Positions 7,272 to 49,139 of a stretch of 60,706 nt of DNA are shown here, piece after piece. Source of the DNA: Dehalococcoidales bacterium (lineage in GTDB: Bacteria > Chloroflexota > Dehalococcoidia > Dehalococcoidales > RBG-16-60-22); contig DAOTYE010000021.1 in NCBI GenBank assembly GCA_034434915.1, forward strand, positions 1 through 60,706. The letters are read 5' to 3'. The notes beneath the pieces are model-generated. The model saw only the letters and a list, made by a program, of their open reading frames with translations. It ran no database searches and was not told where the DNA came from. Each line of letters opens with the position of its first letter. Position 1 is the stretch's first letter. The position numbers and the translations under genes are program-made.

Positions 7272-9104
7272 CTATGAACCTCCTTTACTTTCACGCCCGA
7301 GATATATTGCCTCAACAAATGTGTTCATAAATGCCGGAACTGCGGCGAGCTCAATGTAATCCACCCGGTCCGCTATCTCCTGCGCTTCCATTCTTTTCTT
7401 GCACGATATCAGGGCAAGCCTGGCACCGGTGCCGGCGGCATTCCCGATTTGCCGGAACTTCTTCAGCGGTAAATCAGGTAACATGCCGATGGTGATGGCG
7501 CTTGACATGTCAATGTAACTGCCGAACGCCCCGGCAATGATAATCTGCTCTATTTCCTGCTCTTTGAGATTCTTTGCCTCCAGGAGCAGTTTGATGCCGG
7601 TGTAAATGGCGCCCTTTGCCAGTTGTAGTTCGCGGATATCCATCTGGCTGACAGTGACCGCTTTGCCGCCGTCTCTTTCTGCCTCACTCACGATGACAAA
7701 CTCTTTTTTCCCTTTTGCCGTATGCACCCGCGGGTGCCTGTCCTCAATACGCCCTGTTCTGTCCACAATCCCCGCCCGGTACATCTGCGCCACGGCGTCA
7801 AGGATGCCTGACCCGCACAGGCCGACGGGAGGAGCGCTGTCAATCGTCTTGTATTCCAGCTTCTCGCCGACAAGTCGCAGGCGCTCAATGGCGCCGCTGG
7901 CGGCGCGCATGCCGCATTGAATATGAGCGCCTTCAAACGCCGGACCGGAGGCACAGGAAACGCTCGTCATCTCGCCATCGCTGATGAGGCAGACCTCAGT
8001 ATTCGTGCCAATGTCAATATAAAGGACTGTTCCCTTTACTCTCAGGGCATCAATCGCCAGCAGACCGGCGACCAGGTCAGCGCCGACAAACCCGGCGATA
8101 TTGGGCAACAGGTGCACATAAGCACCGGGGGCAATGGTTAAACCTACCTCGTGCGCTTTGATGTCCAGCGCCCTGCTCACTGCAGGCACATAAGGAGCAA
8201 GCCCAAGCTGTGCCACCGGCAGTCTGGCGAAGAGGTGGTGCATCGCCGTGTTGCCGACGACGACCGCCTCAACCACTTCTTCAGTTTTGGCTCCTGCCCG
8301 ACTGCAGAGGTCAATGACAATCTGGTTCAGGGCGGTGACCACCAGCTCCTGCATTTTGGCGGCTTCCGCCGACGAGCTTTTTGCCCTGCCGATGCGGGTA
8401 ATCACGTCCTCACCATAGCTCACCTGCGGGTTCATGATGCCGGCTGAGGCGAGCGTCCGGCCATCGGTCAAATCAACGAGGTAGCCTGCGATTTTGGTCG
8501 TCCCCACATCCACCGCCAGCCCCAGGTGACGGCTTTCCACGGAGTTCAGGGCAATCACTTCACCATCATGGACAAAGGCTTTTACCTGCCACTTAAGCGT
8601 CCTCAGCCGGGCGGAGAAATCTTGCAACACGCGGGTATCAATTTGCGCGCACTGCACCTTATGCTGTTCTTCCAGCGCCGTCAACAGCCGTTCATCATCA
8701 GCACGCAAGTCAGTGAGAGACGCCGGAGCCAGCGTAACCGCATAGGCGCGCACGCAGGGCTCAGGGGTGACCGTCACCGTCATGCCCTCCACCTGGGTCC
8801 TCTGCTGGGCAGTGATGGATTCCGGGGGCACGCGGATTTTACAATCGCTCTGCGGGTATGCCTGACAGGCAAGACGGTAGCCTTGCTCAAGCTCCTCAGC
8901 GGAGAAAACGTCTTTTTCAGCTGACGTCAGCGCTGACAACTCACCACCTATCATCTGGACCCGGCAACCGCCACACGTCCCGGCACCGCCACACAGGTTC
9001 ACCAGGTCTACGCCCAGCTGGCGCGCGCAATCAAGGAGTGACTTACCTGCCGGGCAGTCTCCCCGCCGACCAATCGGCTCAAAATCTATGTGGTATGTCT
9101 TCAT
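7272..9104 (-). CDS. ASKHA-domain reductive activator of corrinoid proteins (RACo/RamA-like) with N-terminal [2Fe-2S] ferredoxin
   Basis: CGGAGTCGGC...RLACQ; DVGTT, GNTAM, FVGAD, DIGTN, GPAFEG, AGAFG, GNAA. Likely start 9104 (MKTYHIDF); ORF track start is 9212. Confidence 0.92.
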   Translation of the reverse strand: MKTYHIDFEPIGRRGDCPAGKSLLDCARQLGVDLVNLCGGAGTCGGCRVQMIGGELSALTSAEKDVFSAEELEQGYRLACQAYPQSDCKIRVPPESITAQQRTQVEGMTVTVTPEPCVRAYAVTLAPASLTDLRADDERLLTALEEQHKVQCAQIDTRVLQDFSARLRTLKWQVKAFVHDGEVIALNSVESRHLGLAVDVGTTKIAGYLVDLTDGRTLASAGIMNPQVSYGEDVITRIGRAKSSSAEAAKMQELVVTALNQIVIDLCSRAGAKTEEVVEAVVVGNTAMHHLFARLPVAQLGLAPYVPAVSRALDIKAHEVGLTIAPGAYVHLLPNIAGFVGADLVAGLLAIDALRVKGTVLYIDIGTNTEVCLISDGEMTSVSCASGPAFEGAHIQCGMRAASGAIERLRLVGEKLEYKTIDSAPPVGLCGSGILDAVAQMYRAGIVDRTGRIEDRHPRVHTAKGKKEFVIVSEAERDGGKAVTVSQMDIRELQLAKGAIYTGIKLLLEAKNLKEQEIEQIIIAGAFGSYIDMSSAITIGMLPDLPLKKFRQIGNAAGTGARLALISCKKRMEAQEIADRVDYIELAAVPAFMNTFVEAIYLGRESKGGS

Positions 9105-9126
9105 AAATGTTTTATGCTCACGAAAG

Positions 9127-10185
9127 TTAGATTGGGTCTCGCATCTGCCCCCACTTCTCCATGTACTTCTGCTTCGCTTCAGGGTTGACGAGCGATTTAG
9201 GAAATTCACCATTCATCACCCGCCTGATTTCTTCCACCGGGCGGTGCCAGCGCTCCGCCTCAGCTTTGGGCGAAAAAAAGGCGGAGTGAGCGGTGATGAT
9301 GACATTTTCCAGAGAGAGGAGCGGGTTCTGCAGTCCCGGTGGCTCGGGGTCAGTAACATCCAGCGCCGCCATGGCGATTTTTCCCTCTTTCAGCGCACGG
9401 TAGAGCGCCGCCTCATCCACCAGTCCGCCGCGGGCGGTGTTAATCACGCAGGCGTTCCGCTTCATCTTGCTGAAGGCAACTTCATTCAGGATTTTCTTTG
9501 TCTCCGGCGTCAGCGCCGAGTGAACTGAAATAAAATCTGCCTCTTTGAGAAGAGTATCAAAATCTACCAGTTCCACCCCCATCTTCTCTGCGGTCTCCTG
9601 TGACGCATACGGGTCGTAGGCAATCACTCTGAGCTGAAAGCCTTTCGCTTTGGGGGTGATAGCCCGGCTCACTTTGCCGAAGCCAATCAAGCCCAGTGTC
9701 TGCCCCTGAAGCCGGGACATCCCGGGCCAGATGCGCGTCTGAATTTCAATGCCGTCAGCGGAGAGCCCCCACTGCCCTTTCTTGGCGGCAGTATTAAGCG
9801 CCACAATTTTCCTGGCGCAGGCAAGTAGCAATGCCATGGCATGGTCAGACACCTCTTCCACACAGTAGTCCGGCACATTGGTGACCAGGATGCCTTTCTC
9901 CGTCGCCGCGGCGATGTCAATGCTGTCATAGCCAATCTGGGTATTGCAGATGATGCGGCATTTCCGCAGTGCTTCTATTACTTTACGCGGCACCGGGCGG
10001 ATACTGCCCACCGTGACAATAGCGTCCGCATCCTTTGCCAGGGCAATGAACTCGTCATCATTCTGACACAGCTTGCTGGTGAAGTCAGCGCCCAGTTTCC
10101 TGAATTTGTCGGGGTAAAGCTCTGACTCGCCACTCAAGGCTAGCGGCAAAACTACCTTGAATCTGTTTTGCTCCTTTGTCCTCAT
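9127..10185 (-). CDS. D-isomer-specific 2-hydroxyacid dehydrogenase (CtBP/SerA-like)
   Basis: GYD.ID, NVPDYC..EVSDHA, GLIGFG, INTARG, LDV..PEP, ITAHSAF. Confidence 0.92.
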   Translation of the reverse strand: MRTKEQNRFKVVLPLALSGESELYPDKFRKLGADFTSKLCQNDDEFIALAKDADAIVTVGSIRPVPRKVIEALRKCRIICNTQIGYDSIDIAAATEKGILVTNVPDYCVEEVSDHAMALLLACARKIVALNTAAKKGQWGLSADGIEIQTRIWPGMSRLQGQTLGLIGFGKVSRAITPKAKGFQLRVIAYDPYASQETAEKMGVELVDFDTLLKEADFISVHSALTPETKKILNEVAFSKMKRNACVINTARGGLVDEAALYRALKEGKIAMAALDVTDPEPPGLQNPLLSLENVIITAHSAFFSPKAEAERWHRPVEEIRRVMNGEFPKSLVNPEAKQKYMEKWGQMRDPI

Positions 10186-10292: not shown

Positions 10293-10928
10293 ATGATAGA
10301 CATTCCCGCATTTTACAAAGCACTGCGCGCTATAGACGCTAACCAGACCCGGGCGCTGGTACAGGACTACCTGCAAAAGGGCTTCTCCGCCAGCCAGGTG
10401 CTCAATGAGGGACTCATCGGTGCGATGAACGTCATCGGCAAAGAGTTCAAAGCCAAAGACCTCTGGGTGCCGGATGTCCTCCTCGCCGCCCGCAACATGC
10501 ACAGTGGCATTGCGCTCTTAAAACCCATCCTTCAAAAGGACAGGTCCTCCTCAAAGGGCACGCTCGTCCTCGGCACGGTGTTCGGGGATATCCATGACAT
10601 CGGCAAAAACATTGTCGCCATCCTCGCTGAAGGCTCAGGTTTCACGGTGATAGACCTCGGCGTCAATGTCTCAGCAGAGGCCTTCGTTGATGCGGTAAAC
10701 AAACACAAACCTTCTGTGGTAGGGCTTTCCGCTCTGCTCACGACGACGATGCTTGAGATGGGCAATATCATTAAAGCGATTCGTGGTAGCGCTGGTAACT
10801 GCGCACCAAAAATCATTGTGGGCGGGGCTCCGGTGACCAGGAAATTCGCGGAAGAAATCGGAGCAGATGGCTACGGAGAAGACGCCACCTCAGGAGTTGA
10901 GCTTGCCCTGAGCTTCGCCAGCAAATAG
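10293..10928 (+). CDS. Corrinoid (cobalamin-binding) protein
   Basis: B12-binding motif GDIHDIGKNIV, SALLTTTM, VGGAPV, IGADGY; N-terminal cap domain. Confidence 0.95.
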   Translation: MIDIPAFYKALRAIDANQTRALVQDYLQKGFSASQVLNEGLIGAMNVIGKEFKAKDLWVPDVLLAARNMHSGIALLKPILQKDRSSSKGTLVLGTVFGDIHDIGKNIVAILAEGSGFTVIDLGVNVSAEAFVDAVNKHKPSVVGLSALLTTTMLEMGNIIKAIRGSAGNCAPKIIVGGAPVTRKFAEEIGADGYGEDATSGVELALSFASK

Positions 10929-14029: not shown

Positions 14030-14554
14030 ATGGAATGGCGGGAGCTGGTCATTGACGGGTACGTCAGGGTGCTTGACTCCCTGAAGGAATCACTGGCAGG
14101 ACTGACTCCTGAAGAGCTGAACAAACAGCCCAAACCCGATTGTAACAGCATGGGCTGGCTCGCCTGGCACATCTCGCGCATCCAAGACGCAGAAATAGCC
14201 AACCTCATGGGAGCAGACCAGCTCTGGATAAGCCAGAAGTGGCACGCCAAATTTAACCGCCCGCCTGACCCGGATGATACTGGCACGGGACAGACGAGCA
14301 AGCAGGTAGCCGCGTTCAAGTCTCCTGATGTTGAGACCCTGCTGGACTACTACTATGCGGTAGCGGAAAGGACAAAGAAATACATCCGCTCCCTCACTGG
14401 GGAAGAACTTGACCGGAAGCTGGATGAACCCTACCAGCCACCGCCAACGGTGGGCGTACGCCTGGTGAGCGTTCTGGCGGACAATCTCCAGCATGCCGGC
14501 GAAATCGCCTATGTGCATGGCTTGATTAAAGGCAAGGGGTGGCTGGGGTATTAG
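14030..14554 (+). CDS. DinB family protein
   Basis: NSMGWLAWH...QD and D..QH.GEI motifs. Confidence 0.85.
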   Translation: MEWRELVIDGYVRVLDSLKESLAGLTPEELNKQPKPDCNSMGWLAWHISRIQDAEIANLMGADQLWISQKWHAKFNRPPDPDDTGTGQTSKQVAAFKSPDVETLLDYYYAVAERTKKYIRSLTGEELDRKLDEPYQPPPTVGVRLVSVLADNLQHAGEIAYVHGLIKGKGWLGY

Positions 14555-14598
14555 TCAGCCTCTTATCTATACCTTTCACACAGGGTGGCAGTAAACTT

Positions 14599-17500
14599 AT
14601 GAGTTTTTATCTGGGAGTAGATATCGGCTCGGTCAATGCCAAGCTGGCGCTTGTTGCTGAGAGCGGGAACCTGGTTTGCCTGGACATTGAGCGGATAACG
14701 GCAAATCCCCGGACTGCGGTGAACTCTCTGCTCACGCGCCTCAGCCGGAAATTCCCCTTTGAGCAGATTAAAGGCGCCGGCGTCTCAGGCTCAGGGAAAG
14801 GCATCATCCCCCCAGATTTCAAATGGTCTGAGTACAGCAGTTCTCTCGCCATTGCTTACGGACTGCTCCAGCAATATGGCGCAGTGAAGACCGTTATCCA
14901 GATTGGCGGGCAGACATCTCTGGTCATCGTCCTTGAGGATGGGCTGACCAAGCCCTGGAAAGTTGCCTCCAATCCCCTCTGCGCCGCCGGCACCGGCAGG
15001 TTTCTGGAACAGCAGGCTTATAGACTTGGCATCAGCATGGCTGACTTCTCCCGGATTGCTCTCACCTGCCAGGGACCGGCACCCCGCATCGCCGCACGGT
15101 GCAGTGTCTTCGCCAAGAGTGACCTCATCCACCTCCAGCAGAAAGGAGCGCCGCTGGAAGCCATGCTCTACGCCCTCTGTGAAAGCATCGCCCGCATGGT
15201 GGCTTCCCTGCATAAAGGGACATTCGCCGAGCCGATTTATTTTGTGGGCGGCGTAGCGGCGAACGCCGCCATCGTGAAGGCGCTTAATGAAGCTATCTCC
15301 GCCCGCAACGGGTACCAGATGAATGTTACCGTCCCGGAGCATTTCCAGCATATAGAATCAATCGGCGCGGCACTGCTGTCGCGCGGCAAGGCATCTTCAG
15401 TAAATTTCTTGCCTGAGTCAGGTGCCCGCCAGCACTACTTTGAGGCGCCGAAGCTGGAAACAGTCACAGTTCCGGGCAATGGCGGTAGTCCGGGCATTAA
15501 AGAGCCTTGCACCGGCTACCTGGGCGTGGATGTGGGCTCAACCAGCACTAAAGCAGTCATCATGGACGCCTCAGGCAAGACAATCCTGGCGAAGAACTAC
15601 CTCATGACCGCCGGGCGGCCCATTGACGCGGTCAGGGAAGTCTTCCGCAACCTGCTCGCGCTGGGCGCAGACAAAGTGACCATCAAAGGTGTGGGGGTGA
15701 CCGGCTCGGGGAGGTATCTGGTCGGCAGTTTCATCGGCGCTGACCTAATCAAAAATGAAATCACCGCCCAGACCCGCGCCGCCGCAGAGATTGACCCGGA
15801 GGCTGATATCATTGAAATCGGCGGGCAGGACTCAAAGCTGGTCATCAAGCGCAACGGCGTGGTGATTGACTACCAGATGAATAAAGCCTGCGCCGCTGGG
15901 ACGGGGAGCTTCATTGATGAGCTGGCGGAGATGCTCAATGTCCCGGTGAAGAACGGCGAGTTTGCCAGGCTTGCCTTCAGGGCGCCTTACACCATTGACC
16001 TGGGCACGCGCTGTGCCGCCTTCATGGGGCAGGCAGTCCCATCTGCCCAGCAGGATGGCGTCCCGCTGGAAGTCATCACCGCCAGCCTTGCTAACTCCAT
16101 TGCCCGGAACTACCTCTCCAAAGTGGTGGGAAACCGCAAGCTGGGCAACAAAGTCATCCTCACCGGCGCCGTGTTCTATAACCAGGCGGTGGTCTCCGCC
16201 TTCCAGCAACAGCTTAAAGGCAAAAAGCTGATTGTGGCGGAACACCGGGAGGTCAGCGGCGCCATCGGGGCGGCGCTCCTGGCAAAAGAGGCTTCTTCCG
16301 GTCAGACGTCAAAATTCAGGGGTTTTCAAACCGTAATTGACAGCGAATGCCGTCTCTCCACCTTTATCTGCAAAGGTTGCGATAACAACTGCACCATCAC
16401 CCGTATGCAGACTGATGAAAACAGGTCCACCTTTTACGGTAGCAGGTGTGATAAATACGATAGCACCATCAGCCAGGAGCGGCGCGAGACGTTCTTTGAT
16501 GAGAGAGAGAAACTCCTCTTCCGCAATTATCAAGAAGGAACCGGCACTGGGCTGGCAGTAGGCATCCCACGGGCTCTGCTCACCTATGATTACGCCCCGC
16601 TGCTCATCAGCTTCCTTAATACCCTCGGTGTGAAGACTGTCCTCTCCAGCAAAACGACCAAGGAAATTATGGAGCAGTCCGCAGAGCTGAGCTACACTGA
16701 TAGCTGTTTCCCGTTGAAGCTTGTTCACGGGCACATTGCTTCACTGAAAAATAAAGCGGATTATATCCTTTATCCCAGCTTCATCAGGCTCGGCATGAAA
16801 GATGGTGATGAAAACCAGAAATATGCCTGCCCTCTGGTGCAGGCATCGCCGTTCATCGTGCGGCAGGTGCTGAATCTCGGCGAGAAACTGCTATCGCCCA
16901 TCATTGACCTGAGCCGCGGCAGTGAAGAAACAGTCAGCAATCTGACTGACGTTGCCACCGCGCTGGGATTTAGCCGCAATCTGGGCAGACAGGCGGCACT
17001 AGCCGGACTGGAAGCACAACAAAGATTTGAAACTGACCGCGCCACGCTGGGGGATAAGCTTCTTAAAGAGTTGCACGCAAGCGGCAAGCTGGGCGTGGTT
17101 ATCATCTCCCGCGCCTATATGTCCCAGGACTCCGGAGCTAACCTGGGCATCGCGGAAAAGCTGGCTCAGCTGGGCGTGGTGCCCATACCGCTTGACTTTT
17201 TGCCCCTCAACACCATCAACCCCAAAGAATATTCTGACCGCCCTTACTGGTCATACGAAAGCAAATTCATTGCCGCCGCCGCCATCACTGCCCGGGACCC
17301 GCAGTTGTATGCCCTTGCCCTCACTAACTTCGGCTGTGGACCAAACTCGTTTATTCTCAAACTGCTGACGGACATCATGGGCGGCAAACCAATGGGACAG
17401 CTGGAAATTGACGAGCACGCCGCTGAAGCGGGCATCGTCACCCGCCTGGAAGCGTTTGTTGATACCATTAAAGGCTTCTCCCGCGGGACTAAAACCGCGG

Positions 17501-18729
17501 AATTACCGCGTGAGAAAATATACCGCGGCGCGTCACCGGTCATTAATACCCAAAAGACCCTGTTCATCCCTTACATGGCACCTCATGCAGAAGCAGTGGC
17601 GGCGGCGGCTGAAGCCTGCGGGGTCAAAGCCGTGGCTCTTCCTGAGCCTGATGAGCGTGACCTGCTCTACAGCAATCAGGTAACTGAGGGCACAGAGTGC
17701 CTGCCTTACCGTGTTACGCTGGGCAGTTTCATGCGCCTCTACTATGAGAATGGCATTGACCTGAAGAATGCGGAGGCACTCATGACCGGCTCCTATGGTC
17801 CCTGCCGCCTGGGGAAATATGCCATTGAGCAGGGACGCATCCTGAGAGAGATTGGCTTTAACATACCAATCCGCACCACCGTATCCAATAACGCCTACCG
17901 CGATTTGAATCTGGGTCCGGCGTTTGAGCGGCTTTCCTGGAAGGGCATTGTGGCAGTGGACTACCTGGAAAAGCTCCTCTGGCGCACGCGCCCTTATGAA
18001 AAGCATAAGGGTGATGCTGACCGGCTGTTCAGCGAATACCTGAAGGACATCGTCAACTGCATCCGTAGGAAAGAGCGCCTCTCTGAAGTGCTGAGAAAAG
18101 CGGTCGCTGAATTTGATGCGCTCATTGACCGCACTCAGCCCAAACGCCCCCTCGTCGGCATTAACGGGGAGATTTTCCTCCGCTCAAATCGCTTCAGCAA
18201 TAACAACCTGGTCAAGGTATGTGAAACGGCCGGGCTGGAGGTGGTCGTCTCGCCAATTAGCGAATGGATAAACTACACAGCATACCGCAATCTGGAGGAC
18301 GCCGTTAAGTTCCGCGATGTGAAGAAAATGGTGCGGAGCTACATTAAAAAGCTCATCCAGCACCATGATGAGCATCAGATTAGCCGCTTCTACGGCGATT
18401 CTCTCAACAGCAGAGAGCCGTCCACCCCTGAACTGCTGGCGAAATCAGCAGAATACCTCTCCCCGCGCTGTGGCAGTGAAGCCGTCCTCAGCATCGGCAG
18501 CGGGGTGAAGTGGCTGGAATCACCAGAGTTTGCCGGGGTCATCTCAGTCATGCCCCACGGGTGTATGCCTGGCGGCATTGTGGCGGCGATGGCGGACAAT
18601 TTCAGCGCCATCTATCACAAGCCCTGGATTAGCCTGACCTATGATGGCATCCTGGAGACCAATAACACCACCCGGGTGAATAACTTTGCGGAAATCATCA
18701 AGTTCTGCCGCCAGGAAACCAGGAAATAG
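14599..18729 (+). CDS. Multidomain acyl-CoA dehydratase activase-like protein (two BcrAD/BadFG ATPase domains + DUF2229 + dehydratase-like C-terminus)
   Basis: GVDIGS and GVDVGSTSTK, IGGQ(T/D)S twice, CAAGTG twice, RC.VFA / RCAAFM, CFPLKL.HG, CPLVQ, FGCGP, P.GC.PG. Likely start 14599; ORF track start is 14539. Confidence 0.9.
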   Translation: MSFYLGVDIGSVNAKLALVAESGNLVCLDIERITANPRTAVNSLLTRLSRKFPFEQIKGAGVSGSGKGIIPPDFKWSEYSSSLAIAYGLLQQYGAVKTVIQIGGQTSLVIVLEDGLTKPWKVASNPLCAAGTGRFLEQQAYRLGISMADFSRIALTCQGPAPRIAARCSVFAKSDLIHLQQKGAPLEAMLYALCESIARMVASLHKGTFAEPIYFVGGVAANAAIVKALNEAISARNGYQMNVTVPEHFQHIESIGAALLSRGKASSVNFLPESGARQHYFEAPKLETVTVPGNGGSPGIKEPCTGYLGVDVGSTSTKAVIMDASGKTILAKNYLMTAGRPIDAVREVFRNLLALGADKVTIKGVGVTGSGRYLVGSFIGADLIKNEITAQTRAAAEIDPEADIIEIGGQDSKLVIKRNGVVIDYQMNKACAAGTGSFIDELAEMLNVPVKNGEFARLAFRAPYTIDLGTRCAAFMGQAVPSAQQDGVPLEVITASLANSIARNYLSKVVGNRKLGNKVILTGAVFYNQAVVSAFQQQLKGKKLIVAEHREVSGAIGAALLAKEASSGQTSKFRGFQTVIDSECRLSTFICKGCDNNCTITRMQTDENRSTFYGSRCDKYDSTISQERRETFFDEREKLLFRNYQEGTGTGLAVGIPRALLTYDYAPLLISFLNTLGVKTVLSSKTTKEIMEQSAELSYTDSCFPLKLVHGHIASLKNKADYILYPSFIRLGMKDGDENQKYACPLVQASPFIVRQVLNLGEKLLSPIIDLSRGSEETVSNLTDVATALGFSRNLGRQAALAGLEAQQRFETDRATLGDKLLKELHASGKLGVVIISRAYMSQDSGANLGIAEKLAQLGVVPIPLDFLPLNTINPKEYSDRPYWSYESKFIAAAAITARDPQLYALALTNFGCGPNSFILKLLTDIMGGKPMGQLEIDEHAAEAGIVTRLEAFVDTIKGFSRGTKTAELPREKIYRGASPVINTQKTLFIPYMAPHAEAVAAAAEACGVKAVALPEPDERDLLYSNQVTEGTECLPYRVTLGSFMRLYYENGIDLKNAEALMTGSYGPCRLGKYAIEQGRILREIGFNIPIRTTVSNNAYRDLNLGPAFERLSWKGIVAVDYLEKLLWRTRPYEKHKGDADRLFSEYLKDIVNCIRRKERLSEVLRKAVAEFDALIDRTQPKRPLVGINGEIFLRSNRFSNNNLVKVCETAGLEVVVSPISEWINYTAYRNLEDAVKFRDVKKMVRSYIKKLIQHHDEHQISRFYGDSLNSREPSTPELLAKSAEYLSPRCGSEAVLSIGSGVKWLESPEFAGVISVMPHGCMPGGIVAAMADNFSAIYHKPWISLTYDGILETNNTTRVNNFAEIIKFCRQETRK

Positions 18730-30523: not shown

Positions 30524-33190
30524 TTACCGCGCCACACTGGCGATAAGCTCTTCAACTAATGGCTCAGCTTCTTCTTCCGGCAGGCAATAGCGCATCTTGG
30601 TGAAGCCCTGCCTGAGCTCAACCGCCTCCTCGGCGACATTCTTTCCTTCAAGGACTACTCTGGCGATGAGCTCCGCCACTCTGGTGAAGTCCTTCTCTTT
30701 CATCCCGAAGCGCGTCATCTCCTGCACGCCCATCCTGATGCCACTGCTTGAGGTGAATGCTTCGTCATCGGGCAATCCCTGATAATTGACAATGATGTTG
30801 TTTTTCTCCAGGCGGTCTGCGGCGTCAATCGCCTTGGCATAGCCCACCCTCAGGAGCACCTGGTGGGTCTCCGTATAGCCAATGCTGGGGTCTCCTTCCA
30901 CCTGGAGTCCCTGTTCCTTCAGGGCGAGGGCAAAGGCTTTCGCATTGGCGATGACCTGCTCCTGGTAATCCCTACCGTAGGTATTCATCTCATAAGTCGC
31001 CATGAGCAGTCCCAACAGCGTGCCGAGATGGTGATTGCTCACACTGCCCGGGAAAGCACGGCGTGTGATGCTCTGCCAGAGGTCATAGTAGTCAGTCCCC
31101 TCGCTCATGTTGCTCGCCACGATACCTCTCTGCGTGCCAAAGAAGGTCTTGTGGGTGGAGGCGGTAACAATATCAGCACCTTCTTTCAGCGGCTCCTGGA
31201 AATAAGGACCGAAAAGCCCCAGAACATGGGCGGCGTCATACATCAAAATTGGCTTCGGCTTCATGCCTGAAATCATGCGGGCGGTCTCCTTCACCGGCTC
31301 ACGGTGTATTATCATGCTCTTGCCCAGCACGATAAGCTCCGGCTTGTAATGCTCAATAAGCTTAGCCGTCTCAGCTAAATCCGTCTGATATGGATTGTCC
31401 GCTCGCACCGGAAAGTTCACTACCGCCCAGCGCTCGGTGACGGGGTCTACCGCTACAAAGTCCCGCAGACCGCCCATCGGCTGGGCGCTCAGGTGCCCCC
31501 CTTTGCCGATATGGTGGTTCATGACACAGCACAGCCGCCGCGGCTCAATCTTGCGGTTAACCCGGTTGATATAATCCATGATGCCGCTGAAGGTGGTAAC
31601 GTTCGCCATCTGCCCGCTGATTAGCCGCACCTCCACCTCAGAACAGCCGAGGAATTTCTTCAGTTCTTCCTTCAATGCCGCTTCCACCTCAGCAATGAAG
31701 CCGGTCCCCTGGTAATAGTAAGCCTCCACATCGCCCAGGGCTTTAAAGCGGCGGTGCTCAGCATACCTTCCTGACGGGTCAGCAATGGTAAGCAGTCTGA
31801 CGATGGGAGAAGCGGTATTCTCTGAGGGAATGAGGTTTATGGTGCGCTCCTGCCGCCAGAGGGTATTCTGGCAGGCTTTCTTCACCAGGTCACGCGCCTT
31901 TACGGCAAACTCCTGCTCTTCCCTGGAGAATTCAATGGAGACAGCTTCCCCGGCAAGAAGCGGGTGGGCATAGGGCGCGGCTTCACTGGCGAGGTGCCGC
32001 TCTACAATAATGCCTTCTGCCGTTTTGTCCCGGACGATTATTTTTGTCTTCTGCCCCGCTTTCAGGTCGGCGTCAAGATACGCCAGACAGATTGCCCGCT
32101 TACCTGACTCAGCGCCGGGTCTGGACTTTATGCCAGCGCCTTCCGTCTTCCAATAAGGGACGACCGTGCCGCTGGTCACCGCACCCACCTTCTTGCCGTT
32201 GAGGTAGACTTCATTGCCGGCACGGGCGATGGTGCCGCCGGACACTGCCAGAGGCATTACCATACGCGGAACGAGGAGCTTATCCTTCGGCTTGTCCAGA
32301 CAGCCCTGCTGGCGCGCTATCAGCTCTCTCAGCTGTTCCAGTAACGCCTCCCTGCCGATGAAGTCCCCCTTCACCCGGCTGAAGCTCAGCGCAAACCGCG
32401 CCACCGGCAGAGCAAGAATAGGGATTACCCTGCCATCCGCGTCTGTGCCCAGCTCATGACCGTAGAGCGGCAGACCAGCCTCAAGCCTAAGTGTATCCCG
32501 CGCTCCCAGCCCCACCGGCATAATGCCCTCTTTACTGCCGGTAGCCAGCAGGGCGCGCCACAGTTGCACCGCTATCTCAGCCGGTGGAAAAAGCTCAAAC
32601 CCTACCGGCTCACCGGTGTAGCCCGTCCGCGCCACCGGGACATTGACGCCAGAAAATACTACTGTTGTCAGATGATTGCGCCCTGGGTCAGGGAGCTTTG
32701 CTCTGCCGATGACCGCCTGAAGCACCTCTTTGGTGTGTGGTCCCTGTAAGGCGAGCATGGCTATTTTCTGGGTTACATCTTCAAGGGAGACGTCCGCCAG
32801 GCGCGGACAGAAGTTCTGCAGCCACTGCCAGTCTTTCTCCGTGTTTGCGGCATTAACCACGAGGAGATATTCCGCTTCAGTCATCCGATACAGGTAGGCA
32901 TCATCAATGGCACCGCCACGGTTATCCGGAATGATAGTGTACTGGGATTGCCCCGGCTCCAGCGCCGCCACATTGCTGGTGAGGACATACTGCAGGAAGG
33001 GCAGTGCGCCTTTCCCGGTCACCAAGAAGCGTCCCATGTGGGAAATGTCAAAAAGCCCGCCGTATTTCCGCGTCGCCAGATGCTCGGCGATAATGCCGGC
33101 GGGATAGTTCAGCGGCATTTCCCAGCCTGCAAACTCAACCATCTTGGCTCCCAGCTTTACATGCTCTTCGTACAGCGGTGTGCGTCTCAT
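30524..33190 (-). CDS. gcvT-glyA: Fusion of glycine-cleavage aminomethyltransferase (GcvT) and serine hydroxymethyltransferase
   Basis: N-half: RTPLY..H...GA.M..FAGWEMP, FDISHMG, RTGYTGE..GFE, GLGARD.LRLEAG..LYGHEL. C-half: LIPSEN, GRYAE, GGHLS, YDAAHV.GL, STHKTF (PLP Lys), SGIRMG..E.TR.GM. Confidence 0.92.
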   Translation of the reverse strand: MRRTPLYEEHVKLGAKMVEFAGWEMPLNYPAGIIAEHLATRKYGGLFDISHMGRFLVTGKGALPFLQYVLTSNVAALEPGQSQYTIIPDNRGGAIDDAYLYRMTEAEYLLVVNAANTEKDWQWLQNFCPRLADVSLEDVTQKIAMLALQGPHTKEVLQAVIGRAKLPDPGRNHLTTVVFSGVNVPVARTGYTGEPVGFELFPPAEIAVQLWRALLATGSKEGIMPVGLGARDTLRLEAGLPLYGHELGTDADGRVIPILALPVARFALSFSRVKGDFIGREALLEQLRELIARQQGCLDKPKDKLLVPRMVMPLAVSGGTIARAGNEVYLNGKKVGAVTSGTVVPYWKTEGAGIKSRPGAESGKRAICLAYLDADLKAGQKTKIIVRDKTAEGIIVERHLASEAAPYAHPLLAGEAVSIEFSREEQEFAVKARDLVKKACQNTLWRQERTINLIPSENTASPIVRLLTIADPSGRYAEHRRFKALGDVEAYYYQGTGFIAEVEAALKEELKKFLGCSEVEVRLISGQMANVTTFSGIMDYINRVNRKIEPRRLCCVMNHHIGKGGHLSAQPMGGLRDFVAVDPVTERWAVVNFPVRADNPYQTDLAETAKLIEHYKPELIVLGKSMIIHREPVKETARMISGMKPKPILMYDAAHVLGLFGPYFQEPLKEGADIVTASTHKTFFGTQRGIVASNMSEGTDYYDLWQSITRRAFPGSVSNHHLGTLLGLLMATYEMNTYGRDYQEQVIANAKAFALALKEQGLQVEGDPSIGYTETHQVLLRVGYAKAIDAADRLEKNNIIVNYQGLPDDEAFTSSSGIRMGVQEMTRFGMKEKDFTRVAELIARVVLEGKNVAEEAVELRQGFTKMRYCLPEEEAEPLVEELIASVAR

Positions 33191-33228: not shown

Positions 33229-33972
33229 TCACGTCTCCTGCCATTCTATTACCTTCGTGGTCCAGATGCGCTTCACCGCCTTTTCCAGCACCGGCTGACA
33301 CGGCTCGGCAATGTCCAGTAAAGGTGATAGGGCGCGGTTACTGAACTGCTCCAGAAAAGGACAGCGTTTCTCCAGCAATAATAAAGCAGTCCGCGAACCA
33401 CCGTAAACAATGTAATCAATGCCTTTAGCGTAAGCTTCCACGTGCTCTCGGATATGAGCGCAGACCCTGGTCAGGAAAGTCTCAATCTGCTTTTCACGGT
33501 GACGGCGGAAGCGAGATGATGAAGAACCGCCCTGCCTGTGCCGCTGATGCACCAGCCCCGTGCCAACCTTGCTCGTTAGCAGAGTTTCGCCACGACACAC
33601 GCCGACGGCATACGCTCCCAGCCGCAACAGGACCAGTGCAATGGTGTAGTCTTTTTCCAGAAGCACCCGCAAAGGCTCAGCCAGGCATCCCTGACCACGG
33701 TAGCTACCTGCGAGTGGAAACGGCGGTAGCATGAGCAGCACCCTCGCGCTCCTCCAGAAAAGCGCCGCACCTGTTTTTGAGGTGGTGATGAGGTCCGGTA
33801 AGCCGGCAATCGCTGGCAGGCTGATTTCTTTCTTCAACAATTCCTCAATCTCTGCCTGAGAACGCCCGCCGGGGATATAACAGGAGCCGATGATGTCTCT
33901 TCCCCGCTCCATTTCCTCAAGGAAGCGGAAAATACTTTCCCGGCTCAAGTAAAACTCATGTGCGGTAAACAC
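33229..33972 (-). CDS. acVLRF1 (Vms1/ANKZF1-like release factor) family protein
   Basis: LVLLRLG.YAVG, SKVG...VH.RH..GGSS..RF.R.RE.Q, GG...AL. Confidence 0.8.
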   Translation of the reverse strand: MFTAHEFYLSRESIFRFLEEMERGRDIIGSCYIPGGRSQAEIEELLKKEISLPAIAGLPDLITTSKTGAALFWRSARVLLMLPPFPLAGSYRGQGCLAEPLRVLLEKDYTIALVLLRLGAYAVGVCRGETLLTSKVGTGLVHQRHRQGGSSSSRFRRHREKQIETFLTRVCAHIREHVEAYAKGIDYIVYGGSRTALLLLEKRCPFLEQFSNRALSPLLDIAEPCQPVLEKAVKRIWTTKVIEWQET

Positions 33973-33985
33973 AGGTGGCTTGCTC

Positions 33986-36358
33986 CTACAGCTTGGCGAT
34001 GGTTACCCCATCACCACCCTCACCCTGCCCCCCGGAGCGGAAGGAACTGACCAGCGGGTGCCCGGCAAGGGCTTCACGGACAATGCGGCGCACCGTGCCG
34101 GTGGCGGTGCCGTGAATGATGCGCACTTCTTTTAGCCCGGCAACTGAGGCGCTATTAAGGTAGCTCTCCAGCAACCATGCCGCCTCATCAGCGCGCTTAC
34201 CCCGCAGGTCAAGCTCACGGGATACTGCCTTTCTTTCTGCAGTTTTCACCGCGGGGGTGAAGGTCTTTACGCCGCTTTCTTCCGGCGGCTTCGCTTTCTC
34301 CACGCTGTCAATCCCCAGCTTAAGTTTCAGCCTGCCTGACTGTACCTCAACTTCCTGCGTTTCCTCGGAAAATGACAGGACAGTCGCCCACAGGTGTGCA
34401 TCCTTCAGCCAGACGGAGTCGCCCACCCTGATGCCGCCGTCTTCCGGTTTCTCCTCGGTCTTAACCTGCCACCTCTCTCCTTTCAGCTTCTCCTGAACTG
34501 CGGTAATAGAGGCTTTGGCTTTTTCCAGGGCTTCCTTCGTTTTCCGCCGCTTCAGCTCTGCTGACGCCTGGCGCAACTCGCGGTGAAGCTCTGCCACCTC
34601 GCGGACAATCTTATCCCGGTTTTCCTGGAGCAGTTTCTGCTCTTCATCTTTTAGCTCCTGAAGCCTCTTCTCCAGCTCTGCGTTGCGTTGCTTCCAGTCC
34701 AGTCTTTCACGCTCAATCTCTGCCTGTAGTGCCCGTAGCTTCTGTCTTTCAGCCGACAGGTTAATCAATAGCGCCTCAAGCTCCTGAGACCCTCTGCTGA
34801 GCATTTCACGCGCTCTGGCAACTATTTCCTCCGGCACCCCCAGCCGTGTCGCCGTTGCCAGGGCGTTACTGCCGCCGGGGACGCCCACCACCAGATGATA
34901 GGTGGGCATCAGTGTTTCCGGGTCAAAGTCAAGCGATGCATTCTGCAATCCCGGCGTGGTATGTGCGAACGCTTTGAGGTCGCTGAAGTGCGTCGTCGCC
35001 ACCGTCATCGTGCCCCGCGTGAGGAAGTGAAGCAGAATGGAGCGGGCGAGGGCAGAACCTTCTGAAGGGTCAGTGCTCGTCCCCAGTTCATCTAAGAGTA
35101 CCAGGCTTTTTGCTGTGGCTTTCTCGGTGATGCGTTTGATATTGCCCATATGCCAGCTGAAGGTGGACAGGGTCTGCGCAATGCTCTGCTCATCACCAAT
35201 ATCAGCGAAGATTTCATCAAAGAAGGGAATCTGGCTCTGCGGAGCGGCGGGAATGGGTATGCCAGCGAGCGTCATGACGCTCAGCAAGCCGATGGTCTTG
35301 AGAGCCACCGTCTTGCCACCGGTATTCGGTCCGGTGATGACCAGAATAGAGTAATCCTTACCGATTTCTACCGTAAGCGGCACCGCTTTTCCGGTGAGCA
35401 GAGGGTGCCTCGCCTCAACCAGCTTCAGTACATGGTTCTGTTTTCCCGCTTTATCTCCGTCAAAACCGGTCAGGACAGGTTCAGAAGCCTGCATTTTCTG
35501 GGCGTAGCGCGCTTTTGCCAGTGCCAGGTCAAGCTCCGCCACGCGGGCGATGCTTCTGGCAATCTCCGTCACGTGGGCGCCCACCTGTGTGCTGAGGTCG
35601 CGCAGAATCCGCTCAATCTCACGCTGTTCCTCCACCACCAGCTCTTTGAGCCGGTTGCCCATATCCAGCGTAACCAGTGGTTCAATGAAGACGCTCGCGC
35701 CGGTATTGGAGATATCATGGACGATGCCTTTCACTTCATTTTGCATCTCAATTTTGACCGGGATGACATAGCGCCCGTCCCGCTCGGTGATGATTGGCTC
35801 CTGGACAATACGCCGGCCCCTCGGCGACCGCATCATGGTCCCCAGCCGGGCGAGCAACTGCTCGCGTGTTTCCCGCAACTGCTGTCTCACCCTTGCCAGC
35901 CCCGGTGAAGCACGGTCCAGCACCTCGGCACTGGGAGCAATGCAGGAGGCTATGTTCTTTTCCAGCGTGTTCATTTCAGCGATGCCCTCCGCAATCCGCC
36001 ACAACAGGGGAAATTCGGTTGACAACCGCCTCAGGCGCATGCGGAGATGGCTCATGGCGGCGAGCGTCTGCTGAATCTCAAGCAGTGTGCGCGGCTCAAG
36101 AACCTTCCCGATTGTTGCCAGCCGGGCAGGCTCGCGGATGTCCATCACCCCGCCAATGGAAAAGCCGGGCTCAACGGCGAGGAGTTGCCGCGCCTCTGCG
36201 GACTGCTTCAAAAGCAGGGACACCGTCTCATAATCATCAAGGGGTAAAAGAGAAAGCGCCAGTTCCCGGCTCGCGGAAAACGCGGTGTGGCGGGCAAGTA
36301 TCTCCTTTACCTGCGGGAATTCAAGCAGTTCCAGGCTTTTGGCGTCCATAACATTCAC
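33986..36358 (-). CDS. mutS2: MutS2 with C-terminal KOW and Smr domains
   Basis: LEF..VKE.L, G.VHD.S.TG.S.FIEP, ITGPNTGGKTV.LK, ADIGDEQSI.Q.LSTFS.HM, DELG..TDP.EG, TTH, LDLRG. Confidence 0.96.
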   Translation of the reverse strand: MNVMDAKSLELLEFPQVKEILARHTAFSASRELALSLLPLDDYETVSLLLKQSAEARQLLAVEPGFSIGGVMDIREPARLATIGKVLEPRTLLEIQQTLAAMSHLRMRLRRLSTEFPLLWRIAEGIAEMNTLEKNIASCIAPSAEVLDRASPGLARVRQQLRETREQLLARLGTMMRSPRGRRIVQEPIITERDGRYVIPVKIEMQNEVKGIVHDISNTGASVFIEPLVTLDMGNRLKELVVEEQREIERILRDLSTQVGAHVTEIARSIARVAELDLALAKARYAQKMQASEPVLTGFDGDKAGKQNHVLKLVEARHPLLTGKAVPLTVEIGKDYSILVITGPNTGGKTVALKTIGLLSVMTLAGIPIPAAPQSQIPFFDEIFADIGDEQSIAQTLSTFSWHMGNIKRITEKATAKSLVLLDELGTSTDPSEGSALARSILLHFLTRGTMTVATTHFSDLKAFAHTTPGLQNASLDFDPETLMPTYHLVVGVPGGSNALATATRLGVPEEIVARAREMLSRGSQELEALLINLSAERQKLRALQAEIERERLDWKQRNAELEKRLQELKDEEQKLLQENRDKIVREVAELHRELRQASAELKRRKTKEALEKAKASITAVQEKLKGERWQVKTEEKPEDGGIRVGDSVWLKDAHLWATVLSFSEETQEVEVQSGRLKLKLGIDSVEKAKPPEESGVKTFTPAVKTAERKAVSRELDLRGKRADEAAWLLESYLNSASVAGLKEVRIIHGTATGTVRRIVREALAGHPLVSSFRSGGQGEGGDGVTIAKL

Positions 36359-36447
36359 ATTATAGTCAAATCAGCCCCATTAAGCCAATCATGTGCTACC
36401 CATCATGTGCTACAATAGAAAAGAGGGGCAATTTCACAGAGGAGGGA

Positions 36448-36972
36448 ATGATGAAAGGACTCAAAAGCCTGGTGACACTGGAAGGGAAACCAATCACTCT
36501 CATGGGCACCCCAGTCAAGGTAGGACAGAAGGCGCCTGACTTCAAATTGATTACGCCTGAAATGAAAGAGGTGGATTTATCACAGAGCCGGGGTAAGGTC
36601 AGAGTATTAAGCGTAGTCCCATCTCTTGATACTCCTGTTTGTGACCTGCAAGCCCAAAGACTGGAAGAGGAAGCCAGCCGGTTTAAGGATGTAGTTATTT
36701 ACACCATCAGCATGGACCTGCCCTTTGCCCAGGCGCGCTACCGCGCCGCCCGCAACATCAAGAAAATGCAGACCCTCTCCGACCACCGAGACGGTTCCTT
36801 CGGCAAAGCTTATGGCGTACTCATCAAAGAGTTGAGACTGCTCAGCCGCTCCATTTTCATCATTGACCGGGATGACACCGTGCGGTATGTGGAATATGTG
36901 AAAGAAATCACCCAGCATCCGGACTATGACAAGGCGATTGCGGCTCTGAAGACTGTCATTCAGCATAAGTAG
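36448..36972 (+). CDS. tpx: Thiol peroxidase (Tpx-type peroxiredoxin)
   Basis: VPSLDTPVC, ISMDLPFAQ.R, YGVLI.ELRLL.R, HPDYD. ORF track start is 36391. Confidence 0.92.
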   Translation: MMKGLKSLVTLEGKPITLMGTPVKVGQKAPDFKLITPEMKEVDLSQSRGKVRVLSVVPSLDTPVCDLQAQRLEEEASRFKDVVIYTISMDLPFAQARYRAARNIKKMQTLSDHRDGSFGKAYGVLIKELRLLSRSIFIIDRDDTVRYVEYVKEITQHPDYDKAIAALKTVIQHK

Positions 36973-48683: not shown

Positions 48684-49139
48684 ATGAGCAACCTGGCAGG
48701 ATTTCTGACCGGAAAAGGCGTGGAGTTTGAGTTCCTGGAGAAGAAAGTCACCCACCATGCCCAGGAAGCCGCCCAGGCAAGCGGACTCAGCCTTAGTGAG
48801 ATTTTGAAAACCATCGTCTTCATCACTGATGATAAAAGACCAATCATCGGCATCATTCAGGGGGACTGCTCTATCAGCCGCCACAAGCTTCAGCAATGCT
48901 CCGGCGCCAGGTCAGTGCACATCGCCCCGGATAAGGTAGCGGAATCAGTCACCGGCTTCCCCACCGGCGGCATTCCTCCGGTAGGGCACCGCAAAAAGAT
49001 GCCGGTCTTTATAGACAGAGGCGTCATGGCGCATGAGTACATGTGGTGCGGGGGCGGCTCGCGCCAGAAACTGGTCAAGCTGAAGACCGCTGATATCCTC
49101 AGACTGAGTGAAGGCAAAGTGTGTGACCTGAGGATGTAG
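48684..49139 (+). CDS. YbaK/EbsC family aminoacyl-tRNA deacylase
   Basis: I.KTIVF, V...TGF..GGIPP.G, V.ID, .CGGG. Confidence 0.92.
   Translation: MSNLAGFLTGKGVEFEFLEKKVTHHAQEAAQASGLSLSEILKTIVFITDDKRPIIGIIQGDCSISRHKLQQCSGARSVHIAPDKVAESVTGFPTGGIPPVGHRKKMPVFIDRGVMAHEYMWCGGGSRQKLVKLKTADILRLSEGKVCDLRM

Follow-up and report, generated by a model that had tools for sequence, protein, structure and literature searches.

A conserved mutS2–acVLRF1 gene pair of Chloroflexota as a candidate split-and-release operon for ribosome rescue

In the genome of a Dehalococcoidales bacterium (assembly GCA_034434915.1, contig DAOTYE010000021.1), the mutS2 gene is directly followed by a gene of the acVLRF1 family, a family grouped with eukaryotic Vms1/ANKZF1. 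Positions 1 to 60,706 of this contig were analyzed and are called the window below. We found that this gene pair is conserved across a deep clade of Chloroflexota while its neighbors vary. According to the reading that we prefer, and to which we give a probability of about one half, the pair is a split-and-release operon, in which acVLRF1 would release the nascent chain from the 50S–peptidyl-tRNA complex made by MutS2. Of the steps of bacterial ribosome-associated quality control (RQC), chain release is understood least, and the conserved, predicted operon of MutS2 and a Vms1-clade protein provides a concrete candidate for a dedicated RQC termination factor. It also offers a system of two proteins that lends itself to direct reconstitution. 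Annotation pipelines already recognize and name both gene families. Our additions are the conservation of the operonic pairing, its restriction to a clade, and the relocation or loss of a loop glutamine. A full-text literature search, outside which subscription literature largely lay, returned no paper combining VLRF1 and MutS2; Vms1 and MutS2 were named together only in separate contexts, and the searched MutS2 papers with comparative analysis mentioned no release-factor neighbor. The 2019 survey of VLRF-1 proteins regarded the prokaryotic members as not depending on further parts of RQC (PMC6514570).

Conservation of the gene pair

Relatives of the window acVLRF1 were collected from one genome per GTDB species using a query alignment of 22 acVLRF1 proteins, and the best 80 of 223 relatives were analyzed. 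All of these 80 come from metagenome-assembled genomes of Dehalococcoidia or other Chloroflexota, and they are 47–57% identical to the window protein. Of the 76 loci whose upstream DNA was long enough, 75 have mutS2 directly upstream in the same orientation, as found by tblastn with the window MutS2. The sole exception among these 76 informative species genomes is locus L016. The distances from the mutS2 stop codon to the acVLRF1 start codon are mostly 1–57 bp, with a mode of 34. The genes around the pair vary. Even the most frequent family of flanking genes is present in just 13 of the 80 loci, which rules out a conserved third gene of the operon, and the neighbors found in the window (a GcvT-SHMT fusion gene downstream and a divergent tpx gene upstream) do not recur next to the pair elsewhere.

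The metagenome survey was carried out with a query alignment of more divergent acVLRF1 relatives. The two genes were adjacent in 53 of the 66 informative loci, unlinked in 8, and separated in 5, where mutS2 lies 1.4–1.7 kb upstream; 14 further loci were uninformative. On the related metagenome contigs L105, L106, L116, L123 and L124, an open reading frame (ORF) of an IS200/RAYT-like transposase and an unrelated ORF lie between mutS2 and acVLRF1. Owing to this content, the inserted gene was rejected as an extra RQC factor. In total, the two surveys gave 128 adjacent pairs, in which acVLRF1 is 36–57% and MutS2 50–65% identical to the window proteins. When the sampling was done by MutS2, acVLRF1 turned out to be the next gene in 5 of the 7 long contigs with close MutS2 relatives. 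Thus, with 128 independent loci and otherwise shuffled flanks, the adjacency exceeds what chance would give. The initial annotation, made from the sequence of this locus alone, had suggested that the pair might be a rescue operon and had named linkage confined to this genome as a result that would refute it. The neighborhood survey it called for found the linkage conserved beyond the window genome (75/76 and 53/66).

The two proteins and the GG loop

The window MutS2 scores 818.6 bits against the NCBIfam model TIGR01069 (cut-off 400) over residues 6–790. Its Pfam domains are MutS_V and a C-terminal Smr, and a mismatch-binding N-terminal domain is absent. Residues 5–790 align end to end with the ribosome-bound MutS2 of Bacillus subtilis (8qpp_W and 7qv3_v, E ~6e-148; 5.8e-148 for 8qpp_W). 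The KOW-like (MSSS) domain of MutS2 binds uS10. The corresponding region of the window protein aligns with the matching part of B. subtilis MutS2, and a PF20297 match is precomputed for many relatives. Both Walker motifs, A and B, are intact and identical or near-identical to those of B. subtilis. ATP hydrolysis is needed for ribosome splitting by MutS2 (PMC10897456).

The Smr domain carries neither the DxH nor the HGxG motif of nucleolytic Smr proteins of the SmrB/Cue2/NONU-1 type. LDLRG, which stands in place of DxH, is present in 60 of 62 MutS2 relatives. The HGxG motif reads HG[IFV]GTG in most of these relatives and HGxATG in about 7 of the 62, so the HGTATG of the window, which has Ala for the second Gly, is a form that only a minority of relatives share. 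B. subtilis MutS2, which has DLR as well, splits disomes without cleaving mRNA; its DLR-to-ALA mutant still splits them, and its HGxG motif contributes to ribosome binding (PMC10897456). It is therefore plausible from the motifs that the window Smr is non-nucleolytic, because DLR replaces DxH as in B. subtilis MutS2 and not because of HGTATG. The initial annotation had read the Smr loop correctly as IIHGTATG (residues 747–754) and had taken it as a sign of a non-nucleolytic Smr; the conclusion stands on the DLR motif, while the argument from the loop does not.

The acVLRF1 protein scores 96.9 bits against Pfam PF18859, the 'Actinobacteria/chloroflexi VLRF1 release factor' (cut-off 27.1), and 99.7 bits against NCBIfam NF041024, which is below the cut-off of 125. 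At NCBI, close relatives bear the name 'acVLRF1 family' or 'Vms1/Ankzf1 family peptidyl-tRNA hydrolase'. The family assignments given initially to both proteins were right, with acVLRF1 above the Pfam cut-off only. The only Pfam matches in the 247-residue protein are acVLRF1, baeRF_family10 and eRF1_2. The AlphaFold2 model, built from an alignment of 80 sequences, has a predicted local distance difference test score (pLDDT) of 92.3 and a predicted template modeling score (pTM) of 0.87. Using Foldseek against the PDB, we found that the model matches aRF1/eRF1 (E ~1e-9), the bacterial aeRF1-like hibernation factor Balon (E 2e-7), Pelota/Dom34 (E ~1e-5), and yeast Vms1 on the 60S subunit (6r84_R, E 1.3e-5, TMq 0.47 over 189 columns). 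A sequence profile search gave archaeal aRF1 as the closest proteins of solved structure (E 1e-17). When the protein is aligned by profile to aRF1, its first 95 residues match a cut-down N domain from which the NIKS decoding region is deleted, and the C-terminal domain is absent. This agrees with the description of the family as an RNase-H-like eRF1 central domain preceded by a short N-terminal region that replaces the stop-codon-binding domain (PMC6514570). Without the NIKS region and the C-terminal domain, acVLRF1 can neither decode a stop codon nor imitate a complete tRNA, in keeping with a large-subunit substrate. MutS2–acVLRF1 fusion proteins were searched for among the listed homologues and none was found, all of them being about 230–306 residues long. 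Two cysteines of the window protein, C171 and C204 (at about 33361–33363 and 33460–33462), are invariant in 80 sequences from the linked and unlinked clades.

The most conserved segment of acVLRF1 is a long loop with a GG turn, in which H145, G148, G149, S151, R154, F155 and R159 are invariant in 80 sequences of both clades. From this pattern, we read strong selection on the loop, which probably acts at the peptidyl-transferase center or the CCA end of the tRNA. The acVLRF-1 family carries in it a GGxSQ motif with a conserved Gln (PMC6514570). The window loop reads QGGSSSS: the GG turn is kept together with the basic residues around it, Ser152 occupies the Gln position, and Q147 directly precedes GG. 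The initial annotation had called the protein a Vms1-like release factor and had overlooked this replacement. The family part of that name holds; since the GGxSQ Gln is missing, the status of release factor cannot be assumed. Judged by its loop, the window acVLRF1 is a homologue within the family and cannot be classed as a genuine peptidyl-tRNA hydrolase that depends on Gln.

To describe this position, we compared 120 proteins of the MutS2-linked clade with 120 of a distant clade; the latter is a sample, and its members whose loci were checked are unlinked to mutS2. All 120 distant proteins keep the GGxxQ Gln; none has a Gln only before GG, and none lacks both. In the linked clade, 60 of the 120 keep the GGxxQ Gln, 55 have a Gln only before GG, and 5 have neither. 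The same classes count 86, 27 and 15 among the 128 adjacent loci, and the loci with neither Gln include an entire early-branching group with HHKGGSSAN. At least one Gln flanks GG in 115 of the 120 linked-clade proteins (96%), and 15 have it on both sides. Across the relatives (P0001–P0120, L001–L166), Gln alternates between KKGGSSQ and RQGGSS[A/S] (window 33514–33534, minus strand). The two positions are strongly anti-correlated, with a Fisher p of 3e-14 that is descriptive only, the sequences being related. In a neighbor-joining (NJ) tree built with both Gln positions masked, each character changes at least 17–20 times, a count inflated by tree noise. The anti-correlation and the many switches on the tree suggest a needed Gln that is able to sit on either side of GG. 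The alternation may be a relocation of a catalytic residue. In our reading of the alignments, the need for Gln at the canonical place appears to be relaxed or relocated in the linked clade. Catalysis by two histidines, as in RNase A, found no support as a family-wide mechanism, since the invariance of H142 and H158 is limited to the linked clade and H145 alone is conserved throughout the family.

The proposed mechanism and its alternatives

We propose that MutS2, with its intact ABC-type ATPase, a putative KOW-like domain and a DLR Smr that probably does not cleave, would recognize collided ribosomes and split the stalled ribosome, so that peptidyl-tRNA would stay on the 50S subunit, as in B. 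subtilis. acVLRF1 would next bind the vacated A-site side of the 50S, and its long conserved GG loop would reach the peptidyl-transferase center or the CCA end. It would then detach the chain by ester hydrolysis or by cleavage of the tRNA 3' end, the latter having been proposed for Vms1/ANKZF1 (PMC11317155). This step would correspond to the Vms1/ANKZF1 step in eukaryotes and to the Pth step in B. subtilis. The analysis establishes the gene identities, the motifs, the fold and the conservation of the pair; the order of action, the 50S substrate, the catalysis and the identity of the catalytic residue are what we infer. The background from which the initial annotation argued, namely splitting by Bacillus MutS2 and chain release by Vms1/ANKZF1, agrees with the cited literature. 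Pth reaches the ester bond only after alanine tailing by RqcH/RqcP (PMC11633108). According to a 2024 paper (PMC11317155), bacterial RQC has no known dedicated termination factor, and Pth acts after the tailing. The dependence of Pth on tailing and the lack of a known dedicated factor strengthen the logic of split-and-release. A further rationale is that mutS2 occurs without rqcH in at least 9 of 41 Chloroflexota genomes (PMC11633108, Table 1).

A more far-reaching version may be considered, tentatively and with more doubt than belief. It says that RQC in Dehalococcoidia-type Chloroflexota would be free of tagging: MutS2 would split and acVLRF1 would release, with no RqcH/RqcP tailing and no Pth. 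acVLRF1 would then be the first dedicated bacterial RQC termination factor, and its Gln would have hopped repeatedly from the C-terminal to the N-terminal side of GG (GGSSQ to QGGSS[A/S]). At the level of the phylum, rqcH was counted in 26, mutS2 in 35 and ArfB in 11 of 41 Chloroflexota genomes (PMC11633108, Table 1). Among the scanned ORFs of the 60.7-kb window, NFACT (RqcH), S4 (RqcP/Hsp15), Pth, ArfB and SmpB were not found.

Several points weigh against the split-and-release reading. The adjacency of genes indicates coupling and is silent on the order of action, and the activity ascribed to any acVLRF1 is a prediction. The mutS2–acVLRF1 linkage is clade-specific. In an NJ tree, it lies at the base of this acVLRF1 clade, with a secondary loss in one sub-clade, and acVLRF1 proteins of the SAR202 type and of other Chloroflexota, about 30% identical, have no mutS2 nearby. 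Actinobacteria are one of the two main acVLRF1 lineages (PMC6514570), and none of 3,213 Actinobacteriota genomes has mutS2 or rqcH (PMC11633108, Table 1). Thus, together with the unlinked SAR202-type genes, the acVLRF1 family can work without MutS2. Conversely, 2 of the 7 close MutS2 relatives have no acVLRF1 downstream. Vms1 was not detected by the sequence profile search of solved proteins with acVLRF1, so that the label 'Vms1-like' derives from the clade to which Burroughs and Aravind assigned the family (PMC6514570) and from the fold, and not from a close resemblance in sequence. Finally, the GGxSQ Gln is missing in the window and in half of the linked clade, and since some linked members (5/120 proteins, 15/128 loci) have no Gln on either side, Gln-dependent hydrolysis is not assured.

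Some of the exceptional loci have features of their own. The MutS2 proteins of the two contigs without acVLRF1 downstream, L170 (GCA_042566685.1) and L171 (GCA_016210595.1), are close relatives (63–65% identical). L170 bears the label Candidatus Omnitrophota, with a fragment of a Y1 transposase upstream; mis-binning or rearrangement of this contig is therefore possible. The next gene in L171 codes for a 243-residue protein with no Pfam match and no similarity to acVLRF1. SAR202-type acVLRF1 genes (L081–L086) have their own neighborhood, with rpiB (LacAB_rpiB) upstream and a convergent short-chain dehydrogenase gene directly downstream. An alternative partner was sought in the unlinked loci and dismissed, the neighbors being heterogeneous and without a pattern (Usp, ABC exporter, M16 peptidase, SDR, PIG-L, and once RNase II). 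As a single case, the unlinked near-clade locus L137 (6743–8215) has an RNase II/R-type exonuclease gene (RNB + S1) 80 bp downstream of acVLRF1 on the same strand.

The acVLRF1 genes found apart from mutS2 in SAR202, in other Chloroflexota and in one near-group sub-clade, and the lack of mutS2 and rqcH in Actinobacteriota (PMC11633108), would also be expected of a stand-alone rescue factor with a role like that of ArfB/ICT1. Such a factor would act on substrates of its own and share regulation with MutS2 in one clade, with no hand-over of substrate. Burroughs and Aravind described the prokaryotic VLRF-1 proteins as stand-alone and possibly single-component (PMC6514570), and the detection of ArfB in only 11 of 41 Chloroflexota genomes leaves a niche for it (PMC11633108). 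However, co-regulation by itself can hardly account for a tight same-strand pairing with short gaps that persists in 128 loci whose flanks are shuffled. The linked clade differs in how its loop evolves, a sign that the context in which the protein works may have changed, and acVLRF1 has no element for sensing an empty mRNA channel, unlike ArfB with its C-terminal tail. We therefore consider a stand-alone role unlikely.

The loss of the canonical Gln in the MutS2-linked clade only (60/120 against 0/120 in the sampled distant clade), and of any flanking Gln in 15 of the 128 linked loci, could instead mean that acVLRF1 is a non-catalytic cofactor similar to Pelota. It would sit in the A site or on the intersubunit face of the stalled 70S and help MutS2 to split it, or block re-association. 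The combination of an aeRF1-superfamily protein with a splitting ATPase of the ABC type does parallel Pelota–ABCE1, a parallel between Smr and eRF1/Dom34 has been drawn (PMC10897456), and the model matches both Pelota/Dom34 and the non-catalytic Balon in the Foldseek search. Yet acVLRF1 has neither the decoding-center elements of the N domain nor the C-terminal domain that contacts ABCE1 or GTPases. Moreover, its GG loop and the basic surroundings are nearly invariant, whereas inactive paralogues of the Pelota type have lost the loop, and Gln on one side of GG is kept in 96% of the clade. Such a cofactor role seems to us quite improbable.

That the genes are not coupled in rescue at all, acVLRF1 being a hibernation-type (Balon-like) or other ribosome binder, or MutS2 a suppressor of DNA recombination, and that their adjacency is a historical accident, we regard as very unlikely: the model does match Balon, the annotation 'endonuclease MutS2' is widespread, and the linked loci all belong to one clade, so that the linkage may have a single origin, but the adjacency outlasted extensive rearrangement around it and was restored or retained despite a transposase insertion, the MutS2 architecture including the DLR Smr is that of the ribosome-bound B. 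subtilis protein, acVLRF1 lacks the extra domains of Balon, and PADLOC gave no defense-system match. A role in anti-phage defense was rejected as well, since PADLOC gave only a trivial coiled-coil match. The loss or relocation of Gln in one clade is a natural experiment on the dispute over whether VLRF-1 proteins are Gln-dependent hydrolases or tRNA nucleases.

The locus and comparison with known systems

The ORF coordinates (Table 1) bear out the initial description of two co-oriented genes with a 13-bp gap. Across the junction, the coding strand reads TAG-GAGCAAGCCACCT-GTG, and a Shine–Dalgarno-like GGAG overlaps the TAG stop codon of mutS2. A terminator scan gave no terminator-like site between the two genes. 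We infer that they are co-transcribed as a two-gene operon. A conserved RNA element in the spacer was ruled out: in the 25 loci with 34-nt spacers, the pairwise identity of the spacers is 0.68, no higher than the 0.70 of flanking third codon positions. A database protein (P0383) that is 100% identical to the window MutS2 is 787 residues long; therefore, mutS2 probably starts at the ATG at 36349, which yields 787 aa, and not at the GTG at 36358. In the divergent mutS2/tpx region (window 36349–36448), the annotated starts are probably over-extended. Only from residue 28 onward does the 193-aa tpx ORF align with the thiol peroxidase model, and with the ATG at 36349 the real intergenic distance would be about 90 bp instead of 32 bp. 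On the minus strand, 36388–36359 holds a promoter-like site, TTGGCT-18-TATAAT.

Table 1. Coordinates of the mutS2–acVLRF1 pair in the window and of the inserted regions on two metagenome contigs
Feature	Position	Strand	Details
mutS2 ORF	33986–36358	minus	790 aa; ORF listing
MutS domain V, ABC-type ATPase	34796–35344	minus	residues 339–521; Pfam MutS_V, E 1.1e-34
Walker A, GPNTGGKT	35309–35332	minus	residues 343–350; intact
Walker B, LVLLDELG	35081–35104	minus	residues 419–426; intact
Putative KOW-like/MSSS SH3 domain	34307–34426	minus	residues 645–684; PF20297, 19.7 bits, E 7e-4, below cut-off 26.8
Smr domain	33989–34213	minus	residues 716–790; Pfam Smr, E 2.4e-20
LDLRG in place of DxH	34199–34213	minus	window Smr
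IIHGTATG in place of HGxGTG	34097–34120	minus	residues 747–754, window Smr
mutS2/acVLRF1 spacer	33973–33985	minus	exactly 13 bp, mutS2 stop to acVLRF1 GTG
acVLRF1-family gene	33229–33972	minus	247 aa; ORF listing; GTG start
acVLRF1 parts	33229–33972	minus	reduced N-terminal region, ~residues 1–95; RNase-H-like central release-factor domain, ~96–247
Putative active-site loop and start of next helix, HQRHRQGGSSSSRFRRHR	33496–33549	minus	acVLRF1 residues 142–159; alignments
Inserted transposase region, L105	4700–5973
Inserted transposase region, L124	3411–5024

Downstream of acVLRF1, at a distance of 38 bp, lies an 888-aa ORF (window 30524–33190, minus strand) in which GcvT (residues 1–400) is fused to SHMT (436–856). 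No terminator-like site was found before it and a strong GGGAGAG precedes its ATG, so the fusion gene may be co-transcribed with acVLRF1. A free-standing YbaK-like aminoacyl-tRNA editing domain protein is encoded about 12 kb from the pair, and the only RNA gene in the window is a tRNA-Lys. Surrounding genes lie at 7272–9212 (minus), 10293–10928 (plus), 14539–18729 (plus) and 48684–49139 (plus); they include a RACo reductive activator, a B12-binding protein and a 1396-aa CoA-enzyme activase of the BcrAD/BadFG type. Judging by these genes, the surrounding genome resembles that of an anaerobe whose methyl transfer depends on corrinoids.

Among known systems, ArfB/ICT1 and Balon are, like acVLRF1, small accessory ribosome factors with a release-factor-type domain, and Balon belongs to the same superfamily. 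However, ArfB has the unrelated bacterial release-factor fold and senses the mRNA channel with its C-terminal tail, and Balon has additional domains, binds with EF-Tu and has no catalytic loop. To our knowledge, neither of them is linked to mutS2. The resemblance to Pelota/Dom34–ABCE1 consists in an aeRF1-superfamily protein combined with a ribosome-splitting ABC-type ATPase and in the partial loss of the canonical catalytic Gln in the linked clade. acVLRF1 differs in lacking the N and C domains of Pelota and in its strongly conserved GG loop; MutS2 is of the MutS type and not of the ABCE type, and the pairing described here is a genomic one.

RQC in B. subtilis proceeds from MutS2 (RqcU) through RqcH/RqcP to Pth. 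The window MutS2 is an end-to-end orthologue with intact ATPase motifs, a putative KOW-like domain and a DLR Smr, and the presumed substrate, 50S–peptidyl-tRNA, is the same. In B. subtilis, the general Pth releases the chain after alanine tailing (PMC11317155), whereas here a dedicated eRF1-like gene stands in the predicted mutS2 operon. With Vms1/ANKZF1, acVLRF1 shares the aeRF1-superfamily central domain and the placement in the VLRF-1 clade (PF18859; PMC6514570). Its model superposes on 60S-bound Vms1, and it has no stop-codon-reading elements. By analogy, its proposed role would be detachment of the nascent chain from the split large subunit. According to Pfam, the window acVLRF1 differs from Vms1 in having no Rei1 zinc finger, no ankyrin repeats, no treble-clef and no VIM, which binds Cdc48 in Vms1. 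The loop is GxuQ in Vms1 and of the GGxSQ type in acVLRF1, with the Gln missing in the window, and the partners are Cdc48, Ltn1 and Rqc2 in eukaryotes as opposed to MutS2 here. The mutS2–acVLRF1 pair would also link bacterial ribosome rescue to the Vms1 step of eukaryotes and to the logic of Pelota–ABCE1.

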